Shown here piece by piece: positions 701 through 53,861 of a DNA stretch of 64,000 bases (position 1 is the first letter of the stretch; every line of letters begins with the position of its first letter). The notes beneath the pieces are model-generated. The model had not been told where the DNA came from and searched no databases. It saw only the letters and a program-made list of their open reading frames with translations. The position numbers and the translations under genes were made by a program. This DNA is from an uncultured Candidatus Micrarchaeota archaeon (GTDB lineage: Archaea > Micrarchaeota > Micrarchaeia > Micrarchaeales > Micrarchaeaceae), in contig CAVUGN010000002.1 of assembly GCA_963741095.1 (NCBI GenBank), positions 64,001 through 128,000 on the forward strand, read 5' to 3'.

Positions 701-1471
701 CTAATCCATTGACTTGCACATCGCCGTCACTATCTCCTTTTCAATGCTTGTCATCTTCGCAGGCACGATTATCACCGAAGGCCCGCCGAGCTCCAAGGTC
801 TTCGCCTTTTCAATGCTGGCGAAGAGCTTCTGCTGCCTCTCCGATGACAGGCAATTGAGCACAATTATCTTCGTGTCCTCCTTTATTATACCCGATTTGT
901 AGTGTTTCTCCGCCTTTTCCAATATGCTGATTGACTCCTTTATGCTCAAAGAGGCGGCCAGCTCTTGGCTGTAATCCAGCAGCAGGAGCGAATGCAGGTT
1001 GTTCTCAATGTTCCTCCGCAGGGTCTCGTAAAAAGACACTGGCGCGTAGTGCGCGCTCCACTTCGGTATCGTGGCTATGGCGCCAAACCTGTAGAAGTCA
1101 AGTCCGCTCTCGCCTATCGCGGCGGTCAGCACGGAATTCGAATGGATCACCTCAACCTCCACATTCCTCTTCCTTGCCTCTATGAACAATATCTTGTGGG
1201 TCGTTGCCATTAGCGGATCCCCGCCGATGAGCACGGCGACGTCCCTATCGACCGCTTTTGAGACTATGTCCTTTGCACCCTCCTCCATGTCCCTCCTTAC
1301 GAGCACCTTTATCGTGGACTTGCCAGAAAGCTTCTTTATGAGATTAAGATGATCGTCGTCGACGAGGCAGGTGTACCTGTCGACCATCAGCTCGCTCCTC
1401 TTGCAGGCGTCTATGGCCCTCAGCGAGAGGTCATTGCCCGTCAGGCCTATTCCAACTAGAAACAGCATCAC
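701..1471 (-). CDS. dph5: diphthine synthase
   Basis: LFLVGIGL start, GDPLMATTH, GLDFYRFG and LHSLLLLD motifs. Confidence 0.93.
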   Translation of the reverse strand: MMLFLVGIGLTGNDLSLRAIDACKRSELMVDRYTCLVDDDHLNLIKKLSGKSTIKVLVRRDMEEGAKDIVSKAVDRDVAVLIGGDPLMATTHKILFIEARKRNVEVEVIHSNSVLTAAIGESGLDFYRFGAIATIPKWSAHYAPVSFYETLRRNIENNLHSLLLLDYSQELAASLSIKESISILEKAEKHYKSGIIKEDTKIIVLNCLSSERQQKLFASIEKAKTLELGGPSVIIVPAKMTSIEKEIVTAMCKSMD

Positions 1472-34966: not shown

Positions 34967-35049
34967 AATCTCTACCCCTATAATCAGACAAAATAATTTT
35001 GATAGCAAAATATAATAACGCCCGTCTCGTATAACAATCCAGGCAAAGA

Positions 35050-35182
35050 GGGGTTGTAGCGTAACCTGGCAGCGCGGCGGGCTCCAGATGTTTAAAAAAT
35101 TTGAGCTAACGCGATGATGAGGATCTGGAATTACAATACATGAAGTAACCTGCAAGTCTGGGTTCAAATCCCAGCAACCCCA
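35050..35182 (+). tRNA. tRNA-Trp (CCA) with a 60-nt intron at 37/38 (35088-35147)
   Basis: Acceptor GGGGTTG/CAACCCC, D arm GCGT/GCGC, anticodon stem GCGGG/CCTGC with CT-CCA-G|A, T arm CTGGG-TTCAAAT-CCCAG. Confidence 0.92.
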
Positions 35183-35379
35183 GACAGTATATCTTACGAC
35201 GACAGAAGTGAGCCTGTCGTGTATGTATGAGATATGAACTCCAGGTCGGAATTGGGGACATGATGAATAGCAGATAGTCGAATCCTTACGTCTACTTAAT
35301 GTTTTGCATAATTCTGAATAAAGTTAACACAGTTTTTTTATAATATCTTATACAAGAATAAAATGAACTTGGTGGGATT

Positions 35380-35775
35380 ATGGCTAAAGGCAAGTCTGAT
35401 TTAATGGGATCTAGCAAGGCGGCTGCGTATATAGCAAAATGCCCGAAGGACGTACAAGGTAAACTAAGAAGAATTAGAGCCGCGATACGGAAAGTAGCGC
35501 CTGATGCTACTGAACGCACGGATTATTTTCAAATACCTGGATACTCCTATGAAGGTTATGATTACGATGGAATGTTTGTCTGGTTCAGCTTTAAGGAACC
35601 GTATATACGCCTACACTTACGTCCCCCAGTAATACAAGACTATAAAAAGGAACTTGCAGGTTATGCTACAACAAAAGGTATTCTTAGTTTCCCAGCAGGC
35701 GGAGAGATACCAATAGCACTAGTGAAGAAGCTTGTGAAGGCAAGTTTAAAGGTAATGAAAGACAAGTCCAAGTAA
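35380..35775 (+). CDS. DUF1801 (YdhG-like) protein
   Basis: AYIA...L..IRAAIRKVAPDATE...PGY; Y.TTKG.L.FP; IP.ALVKKLVK. Confidence 0.85.
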   Translation: MAKGKSDLMGSSKAAAYIAKCPKDVQGKLRRIRAAIRKVAPDATERTDYFQIPGYSYEGYDYDGMFVWFSFKEPYIRLHLRPPVIQDYKKELAGYATTKGILSFPAGGEIPIALVKKLVKASLKVMKDKSK

Positions 35776-35926
35776 CGCTTGTGGATCGCGCTGCGCAGTA
35801 TTATTTTATATATTTAATCATACAAAGCCCAATTGCAAGTAAAGGCCACTATCTCCAACCCCAAAGCATATTCCTATATCAATTTTTGGTTCGAAAGATA
35901 GTGAGGAAGCAGACATATGATCTAGT

Positions 35927-36289
35927 ATGGGTGATTTATTGCAACCAGATCCGAATAACGAATACTTAAAAAAAGAACAATATACTGATGACAAGTTAAC
36001 GGACATAGTGGAATATATAGAAAATCAGGAATTTCTTAGGGTTATAGCACGCTACCAAATACTGATAAGCGTATTGCTCGCCATGTTCGCCTTCTTCTTG
36101 GGGGCTGGTGATTACTATATTGCAGGTACTTTTGTTGTCCTCGCAATTATTACCTTTTGGATATACGAGAAAGAATGGGACAAAATTAAGGAAAAGCACC
36201 GGAAGATGGTGTACGAGCAGAACAAACGAAGGACAAATAGGTCGTACAAAAATGAACAGCGAATAAAAAGGAATGACAGCCTAAAATAA
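35927..36289 (+). CDS. hypothetical two-TM membrane protein
   Basis: 120-aa ORF with two hydrophobic segments and a basic tail. Confidence 0.6.
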   Translation: MGDLLQPDPNNEYLKKEQYTDDKLTDIVEYIENQEFLRVIARYQILISVLLAMFAFFLGAGDYYIAGTFVVLAIITFWIYEKEWDKIKEKHRKMVYEQNKRRTNRSYKNEQRIKRNDSLK

Positions 36290-36497
36290 AGTTACTTGAA
36301 AGAATATAAGGGATATTAGAAAAGAACAGAAGAGGCGACTACACTTCTGAATTATGTAGTCACCCACTTTTACCATCAAACAAACGTTTATACTCCTGTT
36401 TCCCCTACCAAAGTAAATAAGGCTACCCAATAATATACTTGCAATCTAAATCCTCTTCTATTTCTATTCGTTCCGGATTTCTTATATTCGGTGCTAT

Positions 36498-37064
36498 CTA
36501 AGTCTTAGTTCTTAAGGCAATACTTTTTATCCTAACTTTTTTAGACTCGGTATCAAACTCAGAAACCATCACGGTTTTTACAACAAAATTTCTAGCAAAA
36601 GCAAAATTCCTATACTCTTTGATGGTACGACAAAAGTCCTTTTTATTCAACTCACCATGCGTTATGGTGATATGCGGGACAAATCTTCTACCTTCTTGTT
36701 CTGCCGATTCTGGGAATTCCCTATCCACCAAACCCTTAAGTGCGGTTAGTCTTCCACTAGCTTTAACTTTTAAGTATATCACAAAATTGCGCTTTCGTGA
36801 TGCATCCAATTTCATAAAATATCCTACTCCCTCCACATCCAACGCAAATGGCGCGGTTTTGGCTGCCAAATTTTCTACTCTATCTATTACTGTTTTAAAA
36901 TTTTCTTTACGGCTGCGTACCTCCAAGATTGTGATATGCGGGCCCTTATATCCCTTCAAGTCGCGGTAGACTTTGTATTTCTTAGAAAAATTCTTAATAA
37001 TCTGAAAAATCTCATCCTGCACTTTTTTATCTGGTTGCAACCAAAGTGAAATTACTTTTTCCAT
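36498..37064 (-). CDS. 2H phosphoesterase (2'-5' RNA ligase / LigT-like)
   Basis: Two HxT motifs, PHITI and FVPHITI. Confidence 0.88.
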   Translation of the reverse strand: MEKVISLWLQPDKKVQDEIFQIIKNFSKKYKVYRDLKGYKGPHITILEVRSRKENFKTVIDRVENLAAKTAPFALDVEGVGYFMKLDASRKRNFVIYLKVKASGRLTALKGLVDREFPESAEQEGRRFVPHITITHGELNKKDFCRTIKEYRNFAFARNFVVKTVMVSEFDTESKKVRIKSIALRTKT

Positions 37065-37087
37065 GACGAGGATCAACCCATAATAGT

Positions 37088-37243
37088 TTAATGCGAGTTG
37101 AAGTGCATCTCAACAAATCCAGCAATAAAAAGTACTATGGCAACCACTAATAGCAGCCATCTAGCTTGGGGAGATATGTTGATCAAAAAGCAGATAAAGA
37201 AGACAGTGCCTGCGATGACCGCCCCCATCCCCAATTCTCCCAT
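37088..37243 (-). CDS. small two-TM hypothetical protein (51 aa), possibly a truncated gene
   Basis: Manual translation MGELGMGAVIAGTVFFICFLINISPQARWLLLVVAIVLFIAGFVEMHFNSH; below the ORF-track cutoff. Confidence 0.45.
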   Translation of the reverse strand: MGELGMGAVIAGTVFFICFLINISPQARWLLLVVAIVLFIAGFVEMHFNSH

Positions 37244-37422
37244 GAAAGTGATTGTCACCCAAACTATAAAATAACGGTGTTAACGGCTCTTATCATCTAA
37301 TGGGTGCTCATACCCCTCATTTTCCCCTGCGAGAGCAAACCTTAAATATCTAATAACACACGACAATAATCTACCGATTCGCCTAATAAGATAAAATCAG
37401 CCAATCGATTTTACCGGATTTT

Positions 37423-38679
37423 ATGATAACCAATAGTTCAAACGAGCATGTCCTCTCAAAGGCCATGATAACCGACTACTATCTTTCTAACCCCCCGCTT
37501 CAACCGAAAAGTGCCATTGCACATTATGTAAGGGATAATGGCATACTAGTACCAACCATATACGAAAGTCTGAAAGAAGCCATGAAAGCTCTCCGCCGGG
37601 GCGAGAGATTTATTGCAAGAAGCGAACATCCTGGAGACTACGCTAACAAATCCAACGCATCCGGGCTTCTTCCCAGCGAAAACCTGGGCAGATACGAATC
37701 AACGCTCTTCGAAAAAAGAAATACTCTAGAACGGTATCTCAACATCATTCTCAAGAAAAATAGCCGCTTTGATGGTGCGGACCTGAAAGAGCTCATAATA
37801 TTTGACCCGAAAAACGATTCCTCGTTGGCCGAAATGAATCAGTATTGTGCGCTATCAAATCGTGATTTTGCTGAATTCGTGAACGAGATTACCTTCTCAT
37901 TCTGGAAGCTGCTCGACGGATTCAATTGGAGAGTCATTGCAGACTCTTCCATCAAAGGAAAGTACCACATATTCACGACGTGGGGCATTCCTGGTGGAAA
38001 AAGCTCAAATTACACCATATTCCAGGATGGAAAGCAGACCACGTACTCTGATACACTGCCACAAGAGATGAGCAATAACATCCCTAAGATGATATCCTTC
38101 TACGAGATGGTAAGAACTCTGGAACGGTTTGATCCATTCAACTGCCCTACTATCGAAGGGCAGACCTTCGAGGGCAAAAACTATTTCCTGCAGTACCTTC
38201 TCGGGCGGAAATTCAATCCCCCAAAATTTGTACTTGATAGAGCACCAGAAAAAGATGAAAGGGAGGCACTTTTCATAAGGGGCGCTACCCCCGAGTCAGG
38301 CATACACTGCAATATCGTGTACCACTATGCCTGGTTCTTTGGCTTTGGCAAACCAGATATCAACAAACATGAGGACGGCTCATTCGATCTTCACACAAAT
38401 TCGTCATTCTCTGAACTTATGGTCCGAAACAGAACAATGCAACTGATTGATGCCCATGGATCCCCTCTTGAGGACGTACTAAAGATGGTGGCAGACGGAC
38501 ACCACTCCTATTCAAAGATTTTCAAGCCAGAGATCTATGCAGTAATAAGGCTGGGCGACTATTATCCAAGGAATGAGCGCAGCATAATGCTAAAAAACAT
38601 TTACGAAACCAAATCAGACGCCATGGTGCAGTTGTACGCCATATCCGATGGAAATCGGGCGTACCTCAGAAGAGACTGA
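37423..38679 (+). CDS. hypothetical protein, divergent PEP-synthase/PPDK-type ATP-grasp-like domain
   Basis: FIARSEHPGDY...SGLLPSE and PTIEGQ..GKNYFLQ resemble the VRSS..ED...AG..S and DIEW...YILQ motifs of PPDK_N. Confidence 0.55.
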   Translation: MITNSSNEHVLSKAMITDYYLSNPPLQPKSAIAHYVRDNGILVPTIYESLKEAMKALRRGERFIARSEHPGDYANKSNASGLLPSENLGRYESTLFEKRNTLERYLNIILKKNSRFDGADLKELIIFDPKNDSSLAEMNQYCALSNRDFAEFVNEITFSFWKLLDGFNWRVIADSSIKGKYHIFTTWGIPGGKSSNYTIFQDGKQTTYSDTLPQEMSNNIPKMISFYEMVRTLERFDPFNCPTIEGQTFEGKNYFLQYLLGRKFNPPKFVLDRAPEKDEREALFIRGATPESGIHCNIVYHYAWFFGFGKPDINKHEDGSFDLHTNSSFSELMVRNRTMQLIDAHGSPLEDVLKMVADGHHSYSKIFKPEIYAVIRLGDYYPRNERSIMLKNIYETKSDAMVQLYAISDGNRAYLRRD

Positions 38680-38783
38680 ATGGGGCGCATGGCAACTGGT
38701 TTCCTGTTTGCTTTTGCCTTCTACCCGTTCCAATTGGGCAAGAAGTAAATAACCTTCCAGACATATTGTAAATCGCGGTTTGC

Positions 38784-48691: not shown

Positions 48692-50185
48692 ATGAACATT
48701 GATGATCTGTTTGCATTGGCAAAAAGCAGGGGTCTCTTCTGGCAGAGCGCCGAGATATACGGCGGTCTCGCCGGCATATACGATTACGGCCATCTGGGGA
48801 CGCTCATTAAGAGGCGGTTCGAGAACACCTGGCTCTCATTCTTCGTGGAATCGAGCGACAACTACTACCTGATTGAGGGATCAACAATACTCCCAGAAAA
48901 GCCGCTTGTCTCATCCGGTCATGCGGAGAGATTCAACGACGTGATAATAAGCTGTATGAAGTGCCATTCGTATTACCGCGCTGACGTCCTGCTTGCGGAT
49001 CTCAAAGTTGAGGTGTCGGAGGGCGCGACCCCCGAAGAGATAGACAAGGCAGTGCAGCAGAGCGGTGCAAAGTGCCCAAAGTGCAAGGGGCAACTGTCAA
49101 AATCCAAGGCATTCAACATGATGATGGATCTGTACCTCGGTCCGGAGAAGACCGACAAGAGCTACCTAAGGCCCGAGACTGCGCAATCCGCTTATCTTAA
49201 CTTCTTCAGGGAGTTCAACATCCGAAGGAGAGCACTGCCCATGGGCATAGCGCTGATAGGGAAGGCTTACCGCAACGAGATATCGCCAAGGCAGGGCCTT
49301 TACAGGATGAGAGAGCTGACGCAGGCAGAGCTCCAGATATTCTTCGACCCGAACTCGTGGAAAGTCGACACCGATTACCTGGGCAATCCGGCAGTCAACG
49401 TCGTAACCTACAAGAAGGGGACGATGGAGAAGAAAAAGATTGGCGAGCTGGTCAGTGATGGCACGGTGCCCGAATTCTACGGATACCACATGGCGCTCAT
49501 ACACACGTTCTATACGAAAGTTCTCAAGGTTCCCGAAGAGAAGTTCAGGTTTTTCGAGAAAGGCGGCGAGGACAAGGCATTCTACAACAAGATACACATG
49601 GATCTCGAGGTCGACATCGAAAGCTGGGGCGGCTTCAAGGAAGTTGGCGGTCTTCACTACAGAGGCGACTACGACCTCACATCGCACACGAAGGGCTCCA
49701 ATCAGGACCTGTCGGTATCGATCGATGGCAAGAGGATAATGCCGAACGTACTGGAGCTCAGTTTCGGCGTTGACAGGAACGTGTGGATGCTCATCGACGT
49801 GTTCTACAAGAAGGACGGCGAGAGGTCGCTGCTCAGCCTGCCTCCGATCATGGCGCCCTACCAAGCCGCGGTGTTTTCGCTGCAAAAGGATCCAGAGATC
49901 GAGAAAGCAACAGCTAAGTTGCGCATCATACTAAAATCGCGCTTCAAGATATTCGCCGACGAATCCGGTTCGATCGGAAAGAAGTATGCCAGAATGGACG
50001 AGGTCGGCACGCCCTACTGCATAACCGTGGATTTTGATTCCGTGAACAAGGAATCGAAGGATTACGGTACGGTGACCGTGCGCAGCAGAGACGACAGATC
50101 TCAGGTGCGCATGCCTCTAGAAAAGGTACTGCCGTTCATGGAAGAAAAATTCGCGTTCAATCCCATGGAATTCATGAAGGCATAA
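48692..50185 (+). CDS. glyS: glycyl-tRNA synthetase (alpha2 type)
   Basis: EIYGG, LRPETAQ, RNEISPRQ..R.RE..QAE, ELSFGVDR, SIGK.YAR.DEVGTP. Confidence 0.96.
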   Translation: MNIDDLFALAKSRGLFWQSAEIYGGLAGIYDYGHLGTLIKRRFENTWLSFFVESSDNYYLIEGSTILPEKPLVSSGHAERFNDVIISCMKCHSYYRADVLLADLKVEVSEGATPEEIDKAVQQSGAKCPKCKGQLSKSKAFNMMMDLYLGPEKTDKSYLRPETAQSAYLNFFREFNIRRRALPMGIALIGKAYRNEISPRQGLYRMRELTQAELQIFFDPNSWKVDTDYLGNPAVNVVTYKKGTMEKKKIGELVSDGTVPEFYGYHMALIHTFYTKVLKVPEEKFRFFEKGGEDKAFYNKIHMDLEVDIESWGGFKEVGGLHYRGDYDLTSHTKGSNQDLSVSIDGKRIMPNVLELSFGVDRNVWMLIDVFYKKDGERSLLSLPPIMAPYQAAVFSLQKDPEIEKATAKLRIILKSRFKIFADESGSIGKKYARMDEVGTPYCITVDFDSVNKESKDYGTVTVRSRDDRSQVRMPLEKVLPFMEEKFAFNPMEFMKA

Positions 50186-50195
50186 GGTAGATGAG

Positions 50196-51077
50196 TTGGC
50201 ACGTGAGCGCATCAGCCAAATAGCAACCTCGCACTTCGATCTGCGGCACACCTTCGAATCGGCCAATCCTCTGACATTCTTCGGCGAATACAACCCCAAA
50301 GAAAAGAGTCTCGCTTATCCTGCAGGCCGCAATCTGGTGAAAGTAAGGTTTGTCGGAGATTCGGTGAAGGGGAAGCTCATCCTAGATGGCGACAACCCGC
50401 ATCTGAAGAAAGAGGTAATCACTAGGCTGAGGCTCAATGATGACCTAAAAAAGATATACGCAGCCATTGCAACCGATGACTTCATGGAGCGCGCAATCAA
50501 AAAATATGACGGGATGCATGTCACGCTCAATGATCCGTGGGAGACGACCGTATGCTTCATAATCTCGCAGTATAACAACGTGAAACGCATAAGAAGGATA
50601 ACAAAAAGCATCGTCGAAAGATTCGGGCAAGACATACTGGGCAGAAATGGCTATGTTGTGGCAAAGAGTTTTCCCAAAACCGCAGATCTGGCTGAAGTTA
50701 CTATCAAAGAATTCATGGAATGCGGTGCGGGTTTTCGGGCAAGATACCTGAAAGAGGCTGCAGAATATTGTTCAAGCAGCATGAATCTGAACAAAATAGG
50801 CAGACTCGATTACGATTCGTTGAAAGAGGAATTGATGGAGATAAAAGGGGTGGGCGACAAGGTGGCTGACTGCATAGCCCTCATGGGATACGGAAAACTC
50901 GAGGCTTTCCCGATAGATGTTTGGGTTAAAAGGACTATGGAGAGGGTATACTTCAAAGGAAATGATATGAAGATAGAGGACCTGCGCAAGTTCGCCAACG
51001 AAAGATTCGGCGACTATTGTGGGTACGCGCAGCAGTATATTTTTCATACCTCAAGAATTAATAATTTGTATAAATAA
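50196..51077 (+). CDS. ogg: 8-oxoguanine DNA glycosylase (OGG1-like, HhH-GPD)
   Basis: DPWE...FIISQ.NN, GFRA.Y, IKGVGDKVADC, FPIDVW, GYAQQY.F. Confidence 0.9.
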   Translation: MARERISQIATSHFDLRHTFESANPLTFFGEYNPKEKSLAYPAGRNLVKVRFVGDSVKGKLILDGDNPHLKKEVITRLRLNDDLKKIYAAIATDDFMERAIKKYDGMHVTLNDPWETTVCFIISQYNNVKRIRRITKSIVERFGQDILGRNGYVVAKSFPKTADLAEVTIKEFMECGAGFRARYLKEAAEYCSSSMNLNKIGRLDYDSLKEELMEIKGVGDKVADCIALMGYGKLEAFPIDVWVKRTMERVYFKGNDMKIEDLRKFANERFGDYCGYAQQYIFHTSRINNLYK

Positions 51078-51086
51078 AAATTATTC

Positions 51087-51977
51087 ATGATAAGCGGTTG
51101 TTGCAAAAATTGTGGGAGAACCTTTTTCACTTTTCCCTCTGATATAAATAAAGGTGGAGGCAAATTTTGCAGCACAGATTGTTTTAACAAATATCGCATA
51201 GAGACGAACGGTTGGTTCAGCGGCGCAGAAAAAATGAGATGCCTTTCATGTGGCAAAGAGTTTTTAGTTGCTAAATGGTTTGTAATTAAAAGAGGGCGAA
51301 AATTCTGTAGTATAAAATGTGTTGGTAAATACTACTCTGGGAAAAACAGTCCGTTTTGGAAGGGAGGAAAAATAGAAAGAAAATGTCTAAATTGCGGTAA
51401 AATATTTGCAGTTAGAAAATATACAGTCGCTGAAAATCACGGCAAATTTTGTGGCAGATACTGTATGGGCAAGTATAATAGTAAACATTATTCTGGGAAA
51501 AACAGTTTTAACTACAGAGAGGATTCCGGTCCAAACATAACCGTAATATGTAAATTTTGTCATAAATCATACAAAGTCTACCCTTCCCAAATGAGGCGCA
51601 CAAAATTTTGTTCGAAGCATTGCTTAAATCTTCACAACTATATTAATGCGCCATCAAAAGATACTAACATAGAAAAAGAAGTTAGCCTGTGGCTAAATGA
51701 ATTACATATTAAATACGAACAACAAAAACTACTCCTAAATACTACCTTTGCGGATTTCTTTTTAGAGCCCAATATTGCAATATACTGTGATGGGAAATAC
51801 TGGCATTCAAAATCTTATACTAAAAATAGAGACAAATTCGTAAACAAGCTTTTGAAAGACAATGGTTATAAAGTCCTACGACTTAAAGAAAAAGAAATAA
51901 AGAATCAATCTGGCAAAATCAAACTGAATAATATCATAAAAATTAACAAAGGCGACAAATTTGAGGGAACTGATTAA
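51087..51977 (+). mobile_element. AT-rich inserted ORF: tandem Cys-rich zinc-finger repeats plus C-terminal Vsr/DUF559-like endonuclease (putative free-standing homing endonuclease)
   Basis: Four CxxC-G-K-x-F...KFC(S/G)xxC repeats; DFFLE...IYCDGKYWH...RDK..N..L...GYKVLRL; sharp AT-rich contrast to both neighbours. Confidence 0.75.
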
Positions 51978-52536
51978 CGACGTACGTAAAACAGGCAAGT
52001 ATCTGTCGAATAAGCAGAAGGAGTTCGACAGCGTGACGGACGTGAGCAGGGAGATCATACGCGATTCCGCGAGCGCGATAACCATGCTGCACAACAACGA
52101 TCCAAAAGGCGCGGCCAAGACGATAAAAGCGGCATACACAGGCGTTAAAAAGCTGAACAAGTCAGACACGAGATTCGAGTACTACTCAAGGCAGGCATAC
52201 CAGGAATACGCGGAAGCCACGATATTCTACGGGATAAAGACGAAGAGGGTGGTGCCATCGATCAAGGAAGTCGGCGTGGAGGCGGAAGCCTACCTGCTCG
52301 GCCTCATGGATGTGATGGGCGAGCTCAAGCGGGAGATACTGGAGGAATTGCGGAACGGCAACGTAGAAAAGGCCGAGTTCTATTTCGGCAAGATGAGGCT
52401 GATATACGACAGCACAAGAAGCCTTAGATTTGCAGAGGCGATACTCAACGGATTCAGGAGGAAGCAGGACGTGGCAAGAATACAGCTGGAGGGTGCGGGA
52501 AGCGAGATGCTCTCGTCAAAGTCGAAAAAAGAATGA
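51961..52536 (+). CDS. translin/TRAX (C3PO-like) family protein
   Basis: SREIIR, QEYAEA, YLLGLMD..GELKR, RRKQD.AR. Confidence 0.88.
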   Translation: MRELINDVRKTGKYLSNKQKEFDSVTDVSREIIRDSASAITMLHNNDPKGAAKTIKAAYTGVKKLNKSDTRFEYYSRQAYQEYAEATIFYGIKTKRVVPSIKEVGVEAEAYLLGLMDVMGELKREILEELRNGNVEKAEFYFGKMRLIYDSTRSLRFAEAILNGFRRKQDVARIQLEGAGSEMLSSKSKKE

Positions 52537-52538
52537 CA

Positions 52539-53861
52539 TCAGCGGCGCCTTGCGCGCGCGTCGACCGTCTTTATCGCGTCCTCGAATATGTCCAAGCCCT
52601 TTTTCAGATCCGCTTCGGTCGAAGTGACTGGGGGGATTATCCTTATGGCCGATTTGCCGCACGGAAGCAGTAACAGGCCGTTCCTGAACGCCTCGACAAG
52701 CACATCATCGCTCTCCTTGATTGCCGGAGTCTTGCTCTCCTTGTCCTTAACCAGCTCTACCCCTATCATCATGCCCATGCCCCTTACGTCGCCGACAATC
52801 TCGTAGTCATCCTTCATCTCGTTGAGCCTGTCCATGATCATTTTGCCGTTCTTCTTGACCTTTGCCTGCAGGCTCTTCATATTCTTTTTTACGTAATCAA
52901 GAGCTGCCTCAGCAGAAGCCACCTCGGGCAGGTTGCCGCCGAACGTAGTGCCGTGTGCGCCCCTTGGAATGTCCCCCAAAGAGCTCCTCGCGATAGTGGC
53001 GCCTAGTGGAAGTCCCCCTCCCAGCGCCTTTGCCATCGTGTAGATGTCGGCCTCGACGCCGAAGTTGTCAAGGGCCAAGAACTTCCCGGTTCTCATGTAT
53101 CCGGACTGCACCTCATCGGCGATGAGCAGTATGCCGTGCTCGCTCGCAAGCTTCCTCAACTCCTTCATGAACAGCTTGGGCGGCACTACATACCCTCCCT
53201 CTCCCTGTATCGGCTCTATCATTATCGCAGCCACTTCCTCGGGATCAACATCCCTTTCAAGTATCGTGTCCCTCAGGTAAGAGATGCAGAACCTTGCGCA
53301 CTCGTTGGCGTCTCCGTACGGAAACCTGTACGGATACGGATAAGGAGCATGAATCACAGAATTGAACGGTCCGAAGTGCGCCCTCTGTGTCTTGCTTGAT
53401 GCAGTCACGCCCAACGAGCCGTAACTTCTTCCATGGAACGCGCCGTAGAAGCCTATCACATACTGTCTTTTCGTGAATATCTTTGCGAATTTAATGGCCG
53501 CCTCGTTCGCTTCGGTGCCGGAATTGGAGAAGAAGACGCGACCGAAGCCCTTCGGGAACATCGTCACCAGCTTCTCCGCATAGCGCACTGGCAGTTCGGC
53601 GTAGAAGTCTGTGAATGCGGCGTGCATCATCTTGTCGATCTGCGCCTTGGCAGCCTTCCTAGAAGCTACGCGGCCATCCTCCCCCAGATTGTAAACGGAA
53701 ATGAAGCTTGTGAAATCTATGAACTTGTTTCCTGCTATGTCGTAGACGTAGTCGCCGTCGCCGTGGTCGGCAACGAACGGGTATGGCACCCTCTTCATCG
53801 AGAATATTACTTTCCCATCCCTCTCCATCACTTTCTCTATGCTCTTGGTGATCTTTATCAT
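52539..53861 (-). CDS. class III PLP aminotransferase (4-aminobutyrate/ornithine type)
   Basis: NSGTEANEAA, FHGR, EPIQGEGG, DEVQSG, AKALGGG, TFGGN. Confidence 0.92.
   Translation of the reverse strand: MIKITKSIEKVMERDGKVIFSMKRVPYPFVADHGDGDYVYDIAGNKFIDFTSFISVYNLGEDGRVASRKAAKAQIDKMMHAAFTDFYAELPVRYAEKLVTMFPKGFGRVFFSNSGTEANEAAIKFAKIFTKRQYVIGFYGAFHGRSYGSLGVTASSKTQRAHFGPFNSVIHAPYPYPYRFPYGDANECARFCISYLRDTILERDVDPEEVAAIMIEPIQGEGGYVVPPKLFMKELRKLASEHGILLIADEVQSGYMRTGKFLALDNFGVEADIYTMAKALGGGLPLGATIARSSLGDIPRGAHGTTFGGNLPEVASAEAALDYVKKNMKSLQAKVKKNGKMIMDRLNEMKDDYEIVGDVRGMGMMIGVELVKDKESKTPAIKESDDVLVEAFRNGLLLLPCGKSAIRIIPPVTSTEADLKKGLDIFEDAIKTVDARARRR

Follow-up and report, generated by a model that had tools for sequence, protein, structure and literature searches.

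Within a 64,000-nucleotide (nt) stretch of Candidatus Micrarchaeota DNA (contig CAVUGN010000002.1; the whole stretch is called the window below), a gene for a homing-type endonuclease lies between ogg, which encodes an 8-oxoguanine DNA glycosylase, and translin. Our analysis indicates that window positions 51037–52011 are probably a free-standing homing endonuclease element of the EDxHD type, recently copied with co-converted flanks into a 4-nt gap between ogg and translin. It is a mobile gene of an already known kind and a clean natural example of it, not a new kind. An initial annotation of the window had proposed a free-standing, intronless homing-type gene at the ogg 3′ end, and this proposal is supported by an empty site in the same genus, by I-Bth0305I as the closest match and by recurrence of the gene behind ogg. 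Its placement of the host among the DPANN archaea likewise agrees with the same-genus relative, which is a Candidatus Micrarchaeota.

The ogg–translin junction, occupied and empty

The endonuclease open reading frame (ORF) occupies 51087..51977 on the forward strand, as do all features of the locus described here; in the ORF list it is intact, starts with ATG and encodes 296 amino acids. It begins 9 nt past the stop of ogg (50196..51077; spacer 51078..51086) and overlaps translin (51961..52536, TTG start) by 17 nt. These spacings, and an abrupt switch to AT-rich DNA inside the last codons of ogg, are as the initial annotation had described them. In 200-nt bins, G+C content (GC) is 0.47 at 50800–50999, 0.29–0.39 over 51000–51999 and 0.51 by 52000, and at kilobase scale GC is nowhere lower in the window than across the endonuclease tract (GC 0.33), whose kilobase stands at 0.334. 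The switch starts in the 13 ogg codons past QQY (51037..51077), which have a GC of 0.15 and a third-codon-position GC (GC3) of 0.08. The endonuclease gene has a GC3 of 0.32 as against 0.57–0.73 in the genes for glycyl-tRNA synthetase (glyRS) and an aminotransferase, the ogg body (0.57) and the remainder of translin; within translin, GC3 is 0.53 in the first 17 codons and 0.73 in the rest. The tract is foreign in composition.

In the genome of a same-genus relative (locus L006) only 4 nt separate ogg from translin, and there is no endonuclease gene between them. Outside the tract, DNA identity between L006 and the window is 86%, with 80–100% per 30-nt segment up to 51037; homology breaks after 51037 and returns at about 52012 (0.77–0.97 identity in the next 30-nt segments), and roughly 975 bp in the window replace roughly 88 bp of L006. 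The last 12 codons of ogg, LFWHGRNVA in L006, read IFHTSRINNLYK in the window without homology, bearing out the replacement Ogg C terminus that had been proposed. Together with its stop, this AT-rich tail (51037..51077) reads as a co-converted flank. At the other end, the first 17 translin codons (51961..52011) are about 45–60% identical in DNA to L006 as against 86% elsewhere, and probably lie in the transferred tract. The native parts are the ogg body up to the QQY codons (50196..51036; Pfam HhH-GPD 2.2e-12, and TIGR00588 ogg at 3.5e-43, the latter below its cut-off), presumably the region targeted by homing, and the remainder of translin (52012..52536; Pfam Translin 8e-08). A recombined allele that brought its own ogg tail and translin head would explain both the flank replacement and the GC3 gap. 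The translin starts fall in one alignment column, as TTG in the window, GTG and ATG in two further occupied loci (L166 and L107, described below) and ATG in the empty L006.

The ogg of L006 reads in two frames, with one base fewer in an A run and one TGA inside the match. The break, at about 1513–1519 on the reverse strand of that locus (window position ~50955), stems from misassembly or else means that the empty-site genome has a broken ogg.

The empty arrangement is also found more widely in the family. Among 41 genomes (the window's own and 40 relatives) ogg is present in 40, and we compared 19 fetched same-family loci. The order glyRS–ogg is conserved in all 19 and translin comes next in 15, at −4 to 77 nt, with no insert between ogg and translin in those loci; one of the other four was too short to assess.

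The tract is not bounded by terminal repeats, direct or inverted (an 11-nt pair at 50784/52150 is a chance-size match), and no Rfam family matched 50000–53000 at E ≤ 1, which argues that no group I or group II intron is present; the initial annotation had likewise seen neither terminal repeats nor an intron. A homing endonuclease gene (HEG) borne by an intron or intein was rejected on the same Rfam result and because ogg has its own stop before the ORF and translin its own start. Paralogues at other loci, which the initial annotation had raised, are lacking in the window's own 1.08-Mb genome (11 contigs), where the gene is single copy and the sole match was the gene itself. Two local features touch the upstream junction: an imperfect 15-nt inverted repeat at 51057–51088 covers the ogg stop and the endonuclease start, and an AT-rich TTAATAAT, seen by eye about 22–29 nt upstream of the endonuclease ATG, might be a candidate archaeal promoter carried by the element.

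Independent metagenome runs contain the occupied form and, in one case, what resembles the empty one. Four soil metagenome runs from one study (X1–X4) contain 59–78% of the words of 50400–52600. Their contigs bridge the occupied-form junctions with 0 differences, at 50943–51469 and 51926–52600 (both X2), 51025–51177 (X4) and 51340–52095 (X1). A contig from run X3 (depth 2.8) matches 50918–51034 with 3 differences and then continues for 80 letters foreign to the window; the first 30 of these, which occur nowhere in the window, agree at 29 of 30 positions with the same-genus empty-type ogg tail. This is a good hint, short of proof, that both alleles exist in one community. Runs X5–X7 contain 0.05–0.08 of the words and were left out of the junction comparison, and no RNA run was among the runs listed for the sequence.

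An EDxHD nuclease behind an array of zinc modules

On profile and structural-model evidence, the C-terminal nuclease (aa 189–285, 51651..51941) is assigned to the EDxHD (Vsr-like) homing endonucleases, closest to I-Bth0305I. Searched against PDB, a profile of 13 homologues gave as its best match 3r3p, the catalytic domain of I-Bth0305I (E 1.4e-13), followed by a DUF559-like protein (5e-6) and Vsr (1cw0, 1e-4). Foldseek with the AlphaFold model (whole-model predicted local distance difference test score, pLDDT, of 85) placed 3r3p chains at ranks 1 and 2, with template modelling (TM) scores of 0.80 and 0.71 and, for the top match, a root-mean-square deviation of 2.8 Å over 91 columns. The EDxHD motif comprises a Glu, Asp196, Asn208 (His64 in Vsr), His213 and Asp222 according to Taylor et al. 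2011 (PMC3239194). In the 13-sequence alignment E196, D223, D235 and H240 of the window protein are invariant and D249 nearly so, and these five align with E, D196, N208, H213 and D222 of I-Bth0305I; the Ala residues at two catalytic columns of 3r3p arise because that chain is the D196A/H213A mutant. The ‘x’ position is thus Asp in the window protein, Asn in I-Bth0305I and His in Vsr.

Searches with family models gave a broader picture. Pfam DUF559 (PF04480) passes its cut-off over aa 206–279 (25.3 bits against 20.6), a match to Pfam MTES_1575 is below threshold and the Vsr models stay below theirs (PF03852, 18.6 against 27; TIGR00632, the sole NCBIfam match, 29.9 against 97.85). PHROGs returned phrog_559, ‘HNH endonuclease’, over aa 6–287 (1.9e-13), and PADLOC a ‘homing endonuclease’ (HEase) model (4.3e-10). 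A defence-system identity was discarded, as PADLOC yielded just that model and one weak match. The ORF is far beyond chance: its homologues reach E 1e-101, and the number of matching cluster representatives is 7438 with a threshold of E ≤ 0.001, falling to 1528 at ≤1e-10 and to 45 at ≤1e-30. Identity exceeds 50% in just one of these representatives. Family genes have a GC below that of their flanks in 96 of 102 loci.

The N-terminal part, presumed to recognize DNA, is an array of four CxxC...FC(S/G)xxC zinc modules (51102..51623). They span aa 6–32 (C6xxC9...F27C28STDC32), 52–78 (C52xxC55...F73C74SIKC78), 100–126 (C100xxC103...F121C122GRYC126) and 155–179 (C155xxC158...F174C175SKHC179), and, with two YSGKNS linkers and the nuclease motif D223...C234DGKYWH240, they can be read in the translation just as the initial annotation had listed them. 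Linkers of the G.NS..WKGG type lie within the array. In the 13-sequence alignment 12 of the 16 module Cys residues are invariant and four nearly so; each module was modelled by AlphaFold as a beta-hairpin and a helix, and the DNA-level repeats D1 and D2 are the modules themselves. Their sole Pfam likeness is to zf-FCS, at 18.7 bits and below the 22.4 cut-off. No NUMOD or helix-turn-helix (HTH) family in Pfam matched the protein, and Pfam CapR, DUF4379 and DUF723 gave no match to aa 1–188 or to one module at E ≤ 10, in a search whose HMMER filters can hide very weak matches. The same array occurs joined to DUF559/Vsr, HNH, HNH_2, HNH_3 and NUMOD3-bearing proteins; domain shuffling of this sort is usual for homing endonucleases.

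Recurrence at ogg ends in two Micrarchaeota families

The gene is rare among relatives of the host. We found no full-length homologue in the 40 relatives and none among 400 other genomes of the same class, 173 of which have a clear ogg (the class tallies include two genomes flagged unpublished, G111 and G301, on which nothing else here depends). The gene is therefore not stably syntenic with ogg; stable synteny is what the initial annotation had set against homing. Partial matches alone, to the nuclease or the fingers, occur in 16 of the 400, and in the two compared (G014 and G353) they lie on contigs other than that of ogg. One same-class genome has three identical nuclease-domain matches exactly 25,989 bp apart (G065:C1:352666, 378655 and 404644), a spacing indicative of a DUF559-type gene within a large tandem repeat or within a stretch duplicated during assembly. 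A single-protein scan of species-genome contigs found no close relative, and an alignment-based scan of the same contigs returned 80 distant loci, 0 of them adjoining ogg.

The closest homologues lie on the metagenome contigs L105/L108 (which overlap identically and are counted as one locus), L106 and L107 and on L166, a contig of a Micrarchaeota metagenome-assembled genome. At all four loci the gene begins 0–15 nt past the ogg stop or overlaps it, which with the window makes five occupied ogg ends in two families of Micrarchaeota. Translin follows the endonuclease gene in L107 and L166. In L105 its place is taken by a small Zn-ribbon ORF, which the empty relative L157 also has, between ogg and translin. 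Because L105 has this ORF and not translin downstream, the constant neighbour is ogg. The Zn-ribbon ORF itself has four Cys and was seen at about 1341–1454 (reverse strand) of L157, in one genus of family f3, and at 1023–1217 of L105, past the endonuclease gene.

At all occupied loci the gene has a GC of 0.33–0.38 as against 0.43–0.56 in the flanks. By Ogg identity, the hosts are nearest to genus g26 of family f3 (L108, 60–67%), genus g33 of family f3 (L106, 69%) and genus g3 of family f1 (L166, 60–70%), and in the sampled genomes of these three genera the gene was not found at ogg. The ogg-linked proteins are 44–59% identical pairwise, apart from 70% between the fragment P0005 and L106, and every full-length copy retains an intact ORF with all five catalytic-motif residues. 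The next-closest homologue (L109, 655–1584) is 38% identical, has an extra zinc module and stands between two ORFs resembling DNA methyltransferases, and the addresses of other family branches therefore differ. Three genomes have ogg frames of 521–531 aa compared with about 300 (G036:C24:42337-43182, G402:C44:15387-16214 and G349:C8:68532-69353), which may be fusions to the downstream gene or read-through.

In a maximum-likelihood tree the six ogg-linked proteins group together (support 87/88), and within this group the window protein pairs with the L108 copy, hosted in another family, f3 (support 81/83); pairwise identities lean slightly to the host-like pairing. The tree neither proves nor refutes transfer. 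The ogg-linked lineage is old at its address, which fits long-term cycling of invasion, loss and re-invasion in related hosts.

Two further observations concern other parts of the region. A second low-GC island at window 35000–38700 (0.37–0.46 per kb against a background of about 0.53) holds ORFs without obvious identity, for example 35380..35775, 35927..36289, 36498..37076 (reverse strand) and 37423..38679, and may be another acquired segment. In loci L005–L024, from one family, the glyRS at the same position falls into two classes, 57–68% or 35–38% identical to that of the window, suggesting that some genera exchanged one glycyl-tRNA synthetase for a divergent one without a change of locus.

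Probable homing, its alternatives and known relatives

By analogy with I-Bth0305I and with free-standing phage HEGs such as SegF, the zinc-finger array would bind a long site in alleles lacking the HEG, likely the conserved DNA of the ogg end, and the nuclease domain, probably as a dimer, would break it. Repair from an occupied allele would then copy the gene in and convert the adjoining DNA, roughly 40 nt on the ogg side and 50 nt on the translin side, and the occupied allele would escape further cutting with its site split or altered. The short spacer and overlapping translin start would keep the operon readable, at little cost to the host. The most likely candidate target is the GYAQQY(L/I)FW-coding DNA at the ogg end, because, across 30 empty alleles, no stretch near the junction is better conserved than the DNA for GYAQQY(L/I)FW..GR. 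Comparing tails by eye, in genomes that are kin, we found the Trp codon after QQY(L/I)F kept in none of five occupied alleles versus 17 of 30 empty ones; its loss is the sole hint towards an altered tail that might evade cleavage. A tail motif H..R[IN]N occurs, by the same inspection of related genomes, in four of five occupied alleles and one of 30 empty ones (L168), and FH-type ogg tails are native to g3- and g26-like genera.

Several points weigh against the gene having arrived recently by homing. Cleavage, target site and transfer are inferred throughout. We dropped H..R[IN]N as evidence for the immune tail proposed in the initial annotation, given its presence in an empty allele and the native FH-type tails of some genera. 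In approximately unbiased (AU) tests host-congruent groupings were not rejected (p 0.35 and 0.155), so that long vertical descent with many losses is compatible with the phylogeny alone. No recent or close donor was found, the five ogg-linked genes being old relative to each other at 44–59% identity, and the constant link to ogg could reflect a functional tie. Amino-acid content partly accounts for the low GC, though GC3 argues otherwise. For the empty form in X3 the evidence is one contig of depth 2.8, and runs X1–X4, being from one study, may be the window's own source. Finally, homing would need a route by which DNA passes between Micrarchaeota cells.

Several of these points would suit a gene carried as passive cargo, that is, a selfish or defence-type nuclease or an inactive former HEG brought in by ordinary homologous recombination of the ogg/translin flanks after DNA uptake. 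The replacement of diverged flanks shows recombination and not what made the break, the divergence among the ogg-linked copies speaks against a recent burst of spread, and no target site has been identified. We nevertheless consider such passive carriage unlikely: no full-length ogg-linked copy has lost its reading frame or catalytic motif, homing is proven for the closest characterised relative, the sole notable PADLOC match is to a homing endonuclease, and the gene recurs exactly at the ogg stop in two host families, even with a different downstream gene, as nuclease-driven homing predicts. Homing is favoured as the driver on three grounds: the family to which the nuclease belongs, its intact catalytic residues and the unchanging position of the gene after a conserved coding sequence.

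A role for the protein as a host repair partner, which the initial annotation had offered as its alternative, appears more improbable still. Here a nickase working with Ogg, at sites of 8-oxoguanine removal or at G:T mismatches, would have come down by vertical descent in some Micrarchaeota and disappeared from most. Translational coupling to ogg in 5 of 5 closest-clade members with known context, the fold shared with the Vsr repair nuclease and the host-congruent trees left standing by the AU tests all suit this proposal, but the gene is missing at full length from all 400 same-class genomes, including the 173 with a clear ogg, the Vsr models score far below their cut-offs and the wider family sits at unrelated loci such as L109. 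Vertical descent is disfavoured because it needs many precise deletions, each restoring a native-type ogg tail and the 4-nt spacer, which is implausible in so many lineages, and because it leaves unexplained the GC3 gap; a GC3 of 0.32 in a genome at 0.6–0.7 argues against long residence. A misjoin of DNA from an AT-rich organism into the contig has next to nothing to commend it. The abrupt change in composition and the metagenome-type assembly of 11 contigs would allow for it, yet the independent run contigs bridge both junctions without differences, the junctions are in frame and gene-precise, and the same arrangement exists at four other loci.

The preferred reading, a recently copied EDxHD homing element, has close parallels. 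To our knowledge, free-standing homing endonuclease genes are well known from phages, whereas records from cellular chromosomes are rare and those from DPANN archaea almost absent; Dassa and colleagues reportedly worked on the EDxHD (Vsr-like) homing endonuclease family in 2009. The EDxHD family includes free-standing members and phage Hef (Taylor et al. 2011, PMC3239194). Like I-Bth0305I, the window protein pairs a modular N-terminal DNA-binding part with a C-terminal Vsr-fold nuclease of about 100 aa bearing E-D-x-H-D (PMC3239194); unlike that enzyme, which resides in a group I intron of phage recA and binds through NUMOD2/HTH elements, it is free-standing in an archaeal chromosome and has four FCS-type zinc modules as its presumed binding part. 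EDxHD/Vsr-like HEGs of phage group I and II introns with CapR-like, DUF4379 or DUF723 repeats form a ‘large unrecognized outgroup’ with thousands of UniProt matches (Merk, Jones and Eddy 2025, PMC12350094). They resemble the window protein in having three to five small repeated DNA-binding modules before a C-terminal EDxHD/Vsr-like nuclease of about 100 aa, and in their thousands of unannotated relatives, but the modules of the window protein resemble zf-FCS only, and its gene lies outside introns and in an archaeal host.

In its genomic behaviour, the element is closest to T4 SegF and mobE (PMC2790892; SegF via PMC5867893), which are likewise optional genes between conserved genes, with flanks replaced too and neighbours still expressed; those are GIY-YIG or HNH phage enzymes that spread in co-infection, whereas the window protein is of the EDxHD type and its gene belongs to the chromosome of a DPANN cell. 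The LAGLIDADG HEGs of Haloferax (PMC5867893) are also free-standing in an archaeal chromosome and are proposed to drive neighbouring gene conversion; they belong to another nuclease family and another archaeal phylum, and the accessible part of that paper describes no empty and occupied pair at a housekeeping junction. With Vsr (PDB 1cw0, 1vsr) the window protein shares the fold and catalytic residues, but Vsr acts in repair, consists of one domain, lacks a zinc-finger array and is not a mobile gene, and its family models stay below their cut-offs here. We found no description of an ogg-linked or FCS-finger EDxHD enzyme in the literature, though the supplementary family lists of PMC3239194 and PMC12350094 could hold relatives.

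With this element an uncharacterised module type, an FCS-like zinc-finger array, joins the EDxHD family; its value as a tool is speculative. The initial annotation had raised the idea of a reprogrammable scaffold, and we regard it as a long shot that the four modules read DNA modularly, one module per short stretch. If they do, the ogg-linked clade would amount to six natural variants of one zinc-finger nuclease with a known target, the conserved ogg end next to the junction of each host, and these could yield the recognition code of a compact, non-C2H2 prokaryotic zinc-finger nuclease. The empty site is defined to single-base resolution and the co-converted flanks can be seen; empty and occupied forms seem to occur side by side in one soil metagenome, and five loci in two families share the same ogg address, all of which makes the target readily testable. 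For the biology of the hosts, the case implies that tiny symbionts exchange and recombine chromosomal DNA and, if the homing reading is true, the patchy spread of the gene would be direct evidence of homologous DNA exchange between Micrarchaeota symbiont populations.

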